Assembly (NCBI RefSeq): GCF_003334385.1
Contig: NZ_QOWN01000025.1
Direction: 5' to 3' (one strand)
Length of the DNA stretch: 64,000 nucleotides
Source: Escherichia coli
GTDB lineage: Bacteria > Pseudomonadota > Gammaproteobacteria > Enterobacterales > Enterobacteriaceae
This document shows, in pieces, positions 56,407 to 57,804 of this stretch. A model generated the notes under the pieces. That model saw only the letters and a program-made list of their open reading frames with translations. It was not told where the DNA came from and did no database searches. The translations under genes and the position numbers were made by a program. How positions within the stretch are numbered: position 1 is the stretch's first letter; the number at the start of each line of letters is the position of its first letter.

Positions 56407-56428
56407 GGATTAATAGCATCGGAGACTG

Positions 56429-56543
<115 letters not shown>

Positions 56544-56594
56544 ATAAACAAAGCGCACTTTTTTAACAGTTGTTGCTGCCGACAAATGCAGTAT

Positions 56595-57329
56595 TTAATT
56601 TTCGTGAGGAAACGCCGTAAGGTCATCAATCATTTTTTGAAGTATTGGTGAGTCCTGACCGTCACCCCATTGAAGAATTTTTGCGGTAAGCTGATGACGC
56701 GCTAGTGCATTGAGTCCCATCTTTTTAAGTTTATGGGAGATTTTACCCATGACTTTAATCTGACCGAATGCAGTTGCGTAGGTAATCATATTGCTCTGGA
56801 TAGTGCTCATTTCATCGACTAGTAATTGCGCACGAACATCCTCTTCAAGAATACTGTCCATAGCGATGTATTTCATACCCCACATAGTTTCAATTAACAT
56901 TTGAGGGAAATCAGCACAGTCCAGATCCGGCTCTTTACGGAGGCTATTTTCAAGAACGTTTAGAGCATCAGCACCTTCATCGCTGCCAAAAGGAGATTCT
57001 TCATCCCAGCAACACATATAAAGTGGATCAGTAAAATGGCACTGGAAGTTTGGGTGTGACGTTTTAACATGTAACCCAATTTCTTCATCATCAAAATAGT
57101 AGCGATCCATGAAGTTAAACTTTGGATCTTCTTGATAGCCTTTCTTCATTTTTGCGGCAATCAATTTACTGGCTTCTTTCAGACACTGTTCTTCATTATC
57201 GAACTCTTTTGTCTGGAATTTACCAATACTACCTACCTTGCCATAGTTGACAGCTAAACTATCCCCTTCGTAATCTATCCACCAAAATTTATTCGATTTT
57301 TCATCGTGATAAATAAAGCGTTTTTTCAT
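56595..57329 (-). CDS. yfeS: WGR-domain protein YfeS
   Basis: 244 aa; MKKRFIYHDEKSNKFWWIDYEGDSLAVNYGKVGS resembles a WGR domain. Confidence 0.8.
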   Translation of the reverse strand: MKKRFIYHDEKSNKFWWIDYEGDSLAVNYGKVGSIGKFQTKEFDNEEQCLKEASKLIAAKMKKGYQEDPKFNFMDRYYFDDEEIGLHVKTSHPNFQCHFTDPLYMCCWDEESPFGSDEGADALNVLENSLRKEPDLDCADFPQMLIETMWGMKYIAMDSILEEDVRAQLLVDEMSTIQSNMITYATAFGQIKVMGKISHKLKKMGLNALARHQLTAKILQWGDGQDSPILQKMIDDLTAFPHEN

Positions 57330-57361
57330 GTTACCTCCTGTAAATGCCTTCCCAAAGCGGA

Positions 57362-57736
57362 TTAATTTCCTTCCGCAGGCACCGTTTTATCCGTCTGCGC
57401 AATTAACGCATGTAAAAAAGGCTGTGCGTTCTCATCGCTCTTACCGGGGATCTTCACAATATACGGCTTCCCAGTAATCGATGACGACGAAGCAACCTTA
57501 TCAATAAACTGCTCGGCAGTGTCAATGCGGTTACGGGTATTGCCGAGCTTCAGACGCAGATGAGAAACCGCTTCATAGCAGGTATGTTCATCACCGTTGC
57601 GCACAAATATCAAATCCTTTTTCTGTGCTAATCCCTCCAGCATGGCGTTGATGCGGGCTTCTTCATGGGCAGTTAACTTCGCGTAAACGGGGAGTGTCAT
57701 TAGTAGTGTAATGACCAGACAAATGATTTTCTTCAT
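57362..57736 (-). CDS. yfeK: small secreted protein YfeK (DUF5329)
   Basis: 124 aa; signal peptide [19 protein letters not shown]. Confidence 0.8.

Positions 57737-57761: not shown

Positions 57762-57804
<43 letters not shown>

Follow-up and report, generated by a model that had tools for sequence, protein, structure and literature searches.

Colicin immunity proteins and barstar are acidic inhibitors of basic, nucleic-acid-targeting toxins. Other immunity genes are gathered in heterogeneous polyimmunity loci which, in the catalogue of Zhang et al. 2012 (PMC3482391), share one orientation and short spacers, hold no toxins between their genes, often carry a XerC/D recombinase and vary from strain to strain. 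The WGR domain has been described in other terms, as the DNA-binding domain of MolR-like transcription factors (PMC7824862). Here, we consider where among these belongs yfeS, a gene for a WGR protein that lies beside yfeK in a 64-kb stretch of Escherichia coli DNA (64,000 nucleotides of contig NZ_QOWN01000025.1, assembly GCF_003334385.1; hereafter the window). Both are long-annotated y-genes of E. coli K-12, to which the locus region is 100% identical, and their sigma-E operon is already in the literature. We conclude with high confidence that the adjacency of yfeK and yfeS is an accident of insertion and not a two-part system and, equally firmly, that yfeS is an accessory cassette of foreign composition, occupying a variable slot that adjoins the 3' end of a core sigma-E gene. 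To the whole explanation, in which the neighbours are accidental and YfeS is an orphan immunity protein, we give a probability of about 0.5.

Few K-12 genes now lack any functional lead; yfeS is among them, and a 2025 survey combining transcriptomics with machine learning gave it a regulator and no function (PMC12356324). A preliminary description, made from the sequence of the window, had stated that neither protein has an assigned role and that nothing demonstrates a system, and both statements hold. A strain-variable passenger, the company of immunity genes in three phyla and a high-confidence two-domain model now make yfeS a testable problem. If YfeS does confer immunity, it would represent an immunity family not described before, with the WGR domain in a new role, would suggest that immunity to cytoplasmic toxins can be turned on by envelope-stress signals, and would give a first assigned function to a bacterial stand-alone WGR protein and to a K-12 y-gene of the yfeS type. 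If it does not, the locus holds no more than an accessory gene of the ordinary kind, in an intergenic slot of variable content. The cross-phylum and population evidence for an accidental pair is new here, as is the clue that members of the YfeS family keep company with immunity genes.

Distribution of yfeS and yfeK

The yfeK flank was matched in every complete E. coli genome searched (5426/5426), whereas at least 80% of the 1.7-kb region was covered in 1382 of the 5426 and yfeS, searched alone, was found in 1387 (25.6%), as a single copy and nearly always on the chromosome. In the strains that lack it (~74%), the stop codons of cysM and yfeK stand 2 bp apart, and YfeK ends in ...PAQ as against ...PAEGN where yfeS is present. 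The pair of the preliminary description therefore dissolves: yfeK is found in all E. coli and is core in Klebsiella, Salmonella, Enterobacter and Pseudocitrobacter, where the slot behind it is empty or otherwise occupied, and yfeS is found in a quarter of E. coli. The two open reading frames had otherwise been placed correctly, 32 bp apart on the same strand, in an order that has to be reversed, since both genes are on the minus strand, where yfeK lies upstream and yfeS comes second. Gene order through the locus is cysA, cysM, repetitive extragenic palindromic (REP) elements, yfeS, yfeK, pdxK, crr and ptsI, and its features in the window are as follows.

56595-57329, minus strand: yfeS, open reading frame of 244 amino acids (aa).
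57362-57736, minus strand: yfeK, open reading frame of 124 aa; periplasmic protein of the DUF5329 family, residues 1-19 being its signal peptide; core enterobacterial gene.
56412-57370: strain-variable segment of ~960 bp, comprising yfeS, the REP elements and the three final codons of yfeK (from presence/absence and empty-site alignment).
57330-57361, minus strand: yfeK-yfeS spacer of 32 bp, with an AGGAGG ribosome-binding site 6 nt ahead of the yfeS ATG (sequence read directly).
57117-57329, minus strand: WGR domain, YfeS residues 1-71 (Pfam).
56598-57116, minus strand: acidic all-helical domain, YfeS residues 72-244, with TSHP, PFGxDxGxD and AxxQxKxxG invariant.
57770-57797, minus strand: sigma-E-type promoter of yfeK, GAAACTT-N16-TCAAA (sequence match).
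56407-56414, plus strand: 8-bp direct repeat GGATTAAT, left copy, bordering the variable segment.
57359-57366, plus strand: right copy of GGATTAAT, overlapping the yfeK stop codon.
56420-56560: REP/bacterial interspersed mosaic element (BIME) palindromes, flanked by the stop codons of cysM and yfeS, with an inverted repeat at 56461-56476 / 56508-56523.
56562-56576, minus strand: marbox-like GCAACAACTGTTAAA, which lies past the stop codon of yfeS at a distance of 19 bp, an exact match to a published MarA site.

The composition of the segment sets it apart from its surroundings. Its guanine-plus-cytosine (GC) content lies in the range 0.36-0.42 and that of the flanks in the range 0.55-0.60; among the genes, yfeS stands at 0.392, yfeK at 0.464 and cysM at 0.565, with the 64-kb window at 0.53. 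GGATTAAT has three copies in the window, where 1.24 would be expected, and the two junctions carry two of them. This signature is suggestive only, and the repeats are too short to prove a mechanism. The REP/BIME stretch, which has a median of 39 matches per E. coli genome, is part of the variable segment and not of the conserved flanks.

Homologues of YfeK are present in Klebsiella, Salmonella, Citrobacter, Enterobacter, Superficieibacter and Pseudocitrobacter, and what follows their gene differs from genus to genus. The slot holds a SnoaL-like gene in Klebsiella (L100, 3398-3793) and a 116-aa hydrophobic open reading frame in Salmonella (L103, 3376-3726), and in Pseudocitrobacter faecalis (L102) it is empty, with the same 2-bp stop-to-stop junction as the empty allele of E. 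coli. The short stretch from the stop codon of yfeK to the convergent cysM is a variable cargo slot across the Enterobacteriaceae. Beyond them, a scan of one genome from each of 100,044 species returned 174 stretches encoding YfeS relatives, from which 80 loci were kept, and among these 80 the only enteric loci are a Pseudocitrobacter metagenome-assembled genome (MAG) and a short fragment from Escherichia sp. The MAG has the locus and junction of K-12, with a YfeS of 94% protein identity. When every fetched locus was searched with YfeK (tblastn), a DUF5329 gene lay beside a YfeS relative in E. coli and the Pseudocitrobacter MAG only, and in none of the 78 other species loci. The preliminary description had staked the pairing on co-occurrence across enterobacteria, and no co-conservation was found.

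For each type of allele, Escherichia and Pseudocitrobacter have one and the same junction, and this implies exchange by recombination or an old polymorphism. The last codons of YfeK co-vary with yfeS in the two genera (PAEGN in K-12 and the Pseudocitrobacter MAG; PAQ in most E. coli and P. faecalis), and the junctions are near-identical at the positions compared (57362-57370 in the window, ~7950-7975 in L017, 1610-1620 in L001 and 3360-3372 in L102). Between the MAG and K-12, nucleotide identity is 95.9% for yfeS, 92% for the flanking cys region and 69% for pdxK. The ratio of non-synonymous to synonymous substitution rates of yfeS, taken between K-12 and each of two other intact copies (one divergent E. 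coli allele and that of the Pseudocitrobacter MAG), is 0.31 in one comparison and 0.20 in the other and indicates purifying selection. Decayed copies also occur: yfeS is disrupted by IS1 in E. coli LR-03, a human isolate (H1/H56), and only fragments of 101-155 aa are found in Shigella flexneri, which shows that decay is under way in some lineages.

Expression and regulation

Transcription joins what distribution separates. The yfeK promoter, GAAACTT-N16-TCAAA, fits the GGAACTT-N16-TCAAA consensus of sigma-E regulon operons and is the single match to its own pattern in the 64-kb window, where 0 would be expected by chance. A terminator scan of the 32-bp spacer found no terminator-like site and no separate yfeS promoter was detected, which, together with the strong ribosome-binding site of yfeS itself, argues that yfeS is expressed as the second gene of a sigma-E-induced yfeK transcript. 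We hold with high confidence that yfeS is expressed by read-through from the yfeK sigma-E promoter. Published data run along the same lines: yfeKS is listed as a sigma-E operon by EcoCyc and RegulonDB, as those databases are cited in PMC11502571; yfeK and yfeS go up together on loss of a restriction-modification system (PMC2685091); and under envelope stress induced by an autotransporter the log2 fold change is 1.7 for yfeK and 0.9 for yfeS (PMC6850105). yfeK is, in addition, a direct target of MicA (PMC4618604). Within the sigma-E regulon, yfeK alone is a conserved member and yfeS is a passenger in a quarter of strains.

A MarA site has been reported by chromatin immunoprecipitation sequencing for the convergent yfeS-cysM interval of enterotoxigenic E. 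coli (ETEC) H10407 (PMC5684230), and GCAACAACTGTTAAA in the window is identical to it; as GCAACAACTGTTAAA lies inside the strain-variable segment, the MarA site is confined to strains that carry yfeS.

The YfeS protein and its relatives

Pfam confirms the WGR domain that had been noticed in the 244-aa protein (PF05406, residues 9-71, E 1.2e-17), and finds no match in residues 72-244, which also have no relative in the PDB. Against NCBIfam, YfeS shows WGR-level similarity to a Leptospira family only, far under the cut-off of that family. The AlphaFold2 model is a single globule (predicted local distance difference test 95.4, predicted template modelling score 0.92) in which a four-stranded WGR head with a helix is followed by an all-helical domain, and a family alignment locates the invariant stretches of this C-terminal domain (C-domain) at residues 90-93 (TSHP), 113-121 (PFGxDxGxD) and 187-195 (AxxQxKxxG). 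Neither a signal peptide nor a hydrophobic segment can be read from the sequence. YfeS has an isoelectric point (pI) of 4.98 and a net charge of -13, made up of about -15 in the C-domain and a roughly neutral WGR head, and its family is alike, with a median pI of 4.9 and a median net charge of -14. YfeS is a cytoplasmic, strongly acidic and compact two-domain protein, a WGR head joined to a novel helical domain. The nucleic-acid-associated role that the preliminary description had raised on account of the WGR domain fits poorly with so strongly acidic a remainder.

Full-length relatives of 235-255 aa, at 45-58% identity, are spread across phyla. On the Firmicutes/Bacteroidota side they occur in Paenibacillus, Lysinibacillus, Sporosarcina, Clostridia, Bacteroides, Dysgonomonas, Flavobacterium and Porphyromonas, and further genera include Neisseria, Eikenella, Moraxella, Pseudomonas, Campylobacter and Fusobacterium. 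The nearest outside the enterics are those of Paenibacillus, Bacteroides and Dysgonomonas (53-58% identity) and, on the strength of these relatives and its low GC content, yfeS appears to have been acquired horizontally from a foreign source. A relative of 49% identity was also seen on a contig assigned to the MAG of a methanogen of the gut, a Methanomassiliicoccaceae archaeon (L047); no intact open reading frame was recovered there, and the gene may be frameshifted or the contig wrongly binned. A 'plasmid' copy of YfeS at 70% identity (H26) was dropped, its record being frameshifted and barely annotated.

A profile search with the C-domain gathered 763 clusters at 50% identity, in which the domain either stands alone (~170-185 aa) or is preceded by WGR or by some other N-terminal region. 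Among 36 proteins scanned it is fused to DUF4253 in four and to DUF4240 in one; the literature on these two domains is uninformative about function. One fusion protein gave a weak Imm26 match (E 0.15). The C-domain of YfeS is a mobile module.

Genomic context of YfeS relatives

No partner gene is conserved beside YfeS relatives. Up to three positions on either side of 71 homologues there are 383 genes, which form 281 clusters with recurrences only within genera, and many copies are lone insertions among housekeeping genes, for example beside those for fructose-bisphosphatase and Hsp70. In Dysgonomonas sp. 25 (L005, 6001-6732) the homologue sits in a trp biosynthesis cluster, between a major facilitator superfamily transporter gene and trpC, the gene for indole-3-glycerol phosphate synthase. 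In a Neisseria sp. (L052, 7131-15488), and likewise in L054-L058, gatC, gatA and gatB are split by inserted small genes of which one is a YfeS homologue; this interleaving of an essential operon with accessory cassettes in commensal Neisseria is unusual.

Runs of at least five co-directional small genes were found at 18 of 73 loci, and immunity families could be assigned to them where per-gene Pfam data exist. Among them are three metagenomic loci (L006, L008 and L009), probably Bacteroidales given the related copies in Bacteroides genomes, in which a 379-aa recombinase of the integrase family stands first and is followed by 15-20 co-directional genes, among them a YfeS homologue of 54% identity. 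These arrays have a GC content of 0.32-0.33 and include Imm10, Imm19, Barstar, SUKH, Macro, DUF4304 and DUF6678. On recombinase, array and GC content they fit the description of rAID-1 systems (acquired interbacterial defence tied to a recombinase; bioRxiv 10.1101/471110; PMC12247911), a comparison made on these three points of a definition that also asks for more than 44% identity to BF9343_RS08045. The E. coli yfeS locus has no recombinase and is not itself a rAID system.

Similar company is kept elsewhere. In Paenibacillus, an Imm10 gene comes right after the YfeS homologue and a DUF2750 gene, which is Imm16 in the 2012 catalogue (PMC3482391), stands three genes on; in Lysinibacillus a SUKH/Imm51 protein is encoded near the homologue; and one stand-alone C-domain gene lies immediately 3' of an Imm44 gene. 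Paenibacillus macquariensis (L021) and the Neisseria locus L052, scanned jointly, yielded three to four SUKH, two DUF4303, two DUF2262, Imm68 and DUF1963, and the pooled arrays add Imm43, Imm68, SUKH, DUF4241 and further recombinases. Same-orientation arrays of immunity type, without toxin genes between, surround the homologues of L004, L006, L008, L009, L021 and L104, and surround neither the E. coli gene nor most loci.

YfeK and its family

YfeK belongs to DUF5329 (Pfam E 5.6e-31) and scores 276.7 bits against NCBIfam NF007646 (PRK10318), above the cut-off of 171. The signal peptide that had been proposed for the 124-aa protein is borne out, residues 1-19 being so listed in UniProt Q47702 (PMC10278209). 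A second DUF5329 protein, 73% identical to YfeK, is encoded at a different locus on two Citrobacter/Salmonella-type contigs (L098 and L099, 3001-3366), directly after genes for a ~825-aa phospholipase of the phospholipase D type (Tle5-like) and a Tli4_C-like protein and with an M23 peptidase next. [quoted passage not shown]

YfeS as a candidate immunity protein

The chances that YfeS is an orphan immunity protein, binding a toxin from competitors that acts in the cytoplasm, are in our judgement roughly even. A toxin domain delivered by a competitor, whether of T6SS, contact-dependent inhibition (CDI) or LXG type, would act in the cytoplasm, where YfeS would bind and neutralise it; envelope damage would induce sigma-E, and read-through of the yfeK transcript would switch YfeS on, in a strain whose ancestors acquired the gene, it would seem, from outside the Enterobacteriaceae. 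The acidity of YfeS would suit an inhibitor of basic, nucleic-acid-targeting toxins. The more specific proposal, that the family is an uncatalogued immunity family in which WGR and acidic helical domain jointly bind a polymorphic toxin, and that it is sigma-E-induced in a quarter of E. coli, is plausible, with the odds leaning somewhat against it.

Several observations weigh against an immunity role. Across ~85 loci, for which Pfam summaries cover the top 20 families, no toxin gene adjoins any family member; 55 of 73 loci are singletons among housekeeping genes; and a named immunity family is found in only a minority of array neighbours, whose enrichment is judged against general expectation. 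In the Pfam scan YfeS itself has no match to an Imm family, the available portion of the text of the 2012 polymorphic-toxin catalogue (PMC3482391) makes no mention of WGR, and the terms WGR, YfeS and molybdate were not found in the supplement of the rAID paper. The E. coli gene lies outside any array, with no recombinase nearby. Identities of 45-58% across phyla, together with invariant polar motifs, are high for immunity proteins and could equally reflect an enzyme or ligand site. The sole reported phenotype, sensitivity of a yfeS deletion to boric acid with partial complementation, has no evident tie to immunity. Finally, the PAEGN end of yfeK resembles C-termini in other genera, which favours a later deletion in most E. 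coli.

Large upstream neighbours of the relatives were considered as candidate toxins and rejected, being an S-layer protein, a kinase, a TonB receptor, gyrase and a nicotinate phosphoribosyltransferase.

Alternative explanations

The reading closest to the preliminary description makes secreted YfeK and cytoplasmic YfeS a dedicated two-component system. Shared strand, a 32-bp spacing, co-induction by sigma-E and the identical yfeK-yfeS junction of the Pseudocitrobacter MAG would suit it, as would the report that growth stops on overexpression of YfeK and not of YfeS (PMC2685091), from which one version makes YfeK a toxin and YfeS its antidote. That version was rejected, given that most strains have yfeK alone and that the compartments differ, periplasm for YfeK and cytoplasm for YfeS; these objections, with the unrelated genes or empty slots of other genera, the want of a DUF5329 neighbour in the 78 other species loci and GC contents of 0.46 and 0.39, bear on the system as a whole, which is largely refuted by the lack of co-conservation and which we regard as highly improbable. 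If YfeS works by itself, its genuine WGR domain might make it a nucleic-acid-binding regulator or sensor, a 'MolR-like' factor or a DNA-break sensor of PARP type, and some stand-alone C-domain homologues are indeed labelled 'molybdate metabolism regulator' or 'MolR family'. Such labels, however, are names copied between database records; the C-domain also exists without WGR; the Pfam scan detected WGR only and no helix-turn-helix family, PARP catalytic or regulatory domain or DUF4132; the protein is acidic, with even its WGR part near neutral; and the scattered neighbours offer no conserved target operon. A regulator or sensor is therefore unlikely.

Strain variability, low GC content and horizontal spread would equally befit a single-gene anti-phage defence or counter-defence protein, and there are C-domain copies in Listeria phage records, a WGR protein in a jumbo phage and WGR-containing families in PHROGs. 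Yet PADLOC returned no match for either YfeS or YfeK, the PHROG matches are confined to the WGR domain, only five phage records match and none at full length, and the neighbours are of immunity type and not genes of defence islands, all of which leaves a part in phage defence quite improbable. Greater weight attaches to YfeS as a small enzyme, or a ligand-binding stress-resistance cassette, that answers envelope or chemical stress, binds no toxin and would travel in mobile arrays alongside further genes of resistance type. Its invariant polar residues (H92, D117, D121, Q190 and K192) and unusually high cross-phylum identity would befit either; Macro, GrpB, NUDIX, DinB_2, glyoxalase and adenylyltransferase genes are likewise found in the arrays; yfeS is under sigma-E control; and the minimum inhibitory concentration (MIC) of boric acid falls from 100 mM in the wild type to 45-50 mM on deletion of yfeS, complementation restoring it only to 65 mM (PMC11502571). 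We consider this doubtful though credible, and hold the orphan immunity protein beside an accidental neighbour as the reading to compare with described systems.

Comparison with known systems

Among WGR proteins, YfeS shares with PARP1-3 a bona fide WGR fold in its N-terminal 70 residues, but it has neither the regulatory nor the catalytic ADP-ribosyltransferase (ART) domain of a PARP, and its helical C-domain finds no ART-like fold match. Bacteroides fragilis Q64V53 (PDB 2ra8) likewise sets a WGR head, 44% identical over that domain, on a protein-binding repeat body; its leucine-rich repeats (LRR) are absent from YfeS, whose C-terminal helical domain is unrelated. The MolR/YehH-type proteins of E. 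coli, which combine WGR with DUF4132, have a head of 45-47% identity over ~70 residues (YfeS 3-74) and some database names in common with YfeS, yet the Pfam scan finds no DUF4132 in YfeS and its C-domain is a different module that also stands alone. Even the 'WGR' motif that names the domain reads YGK in YfeS. YfeS is not a PARP, a MolR or a member of a named Imm family.

The orphan immunity genes known from polyimmunity loci and from rAID-1 arrays (Zhang et al. 2012, PMC3482391; Ross et al. 2019, bioRxiv 10.1101/471110) differ from E. coli yfeS in that the latter is alone, with no array, recombinase or toxin, matches no Imm family in the Pfam scan and is conserved above what is usual for them. 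In its other traits the gene resembles them: YfeS is small, cytoplasmic, acidic, patchy and strain-variable, its homologues of 54% identity occur in co-directional arrays behind a XerD-like recombinase, and its relatives lie beside Imm10, Imm16, Imm44, Imm51 and Imm68 genes. In their features, the arrays in which YfeS relatives are found agree with the heterogeneous polyimmunity loci described by Zhang et al. 2012.

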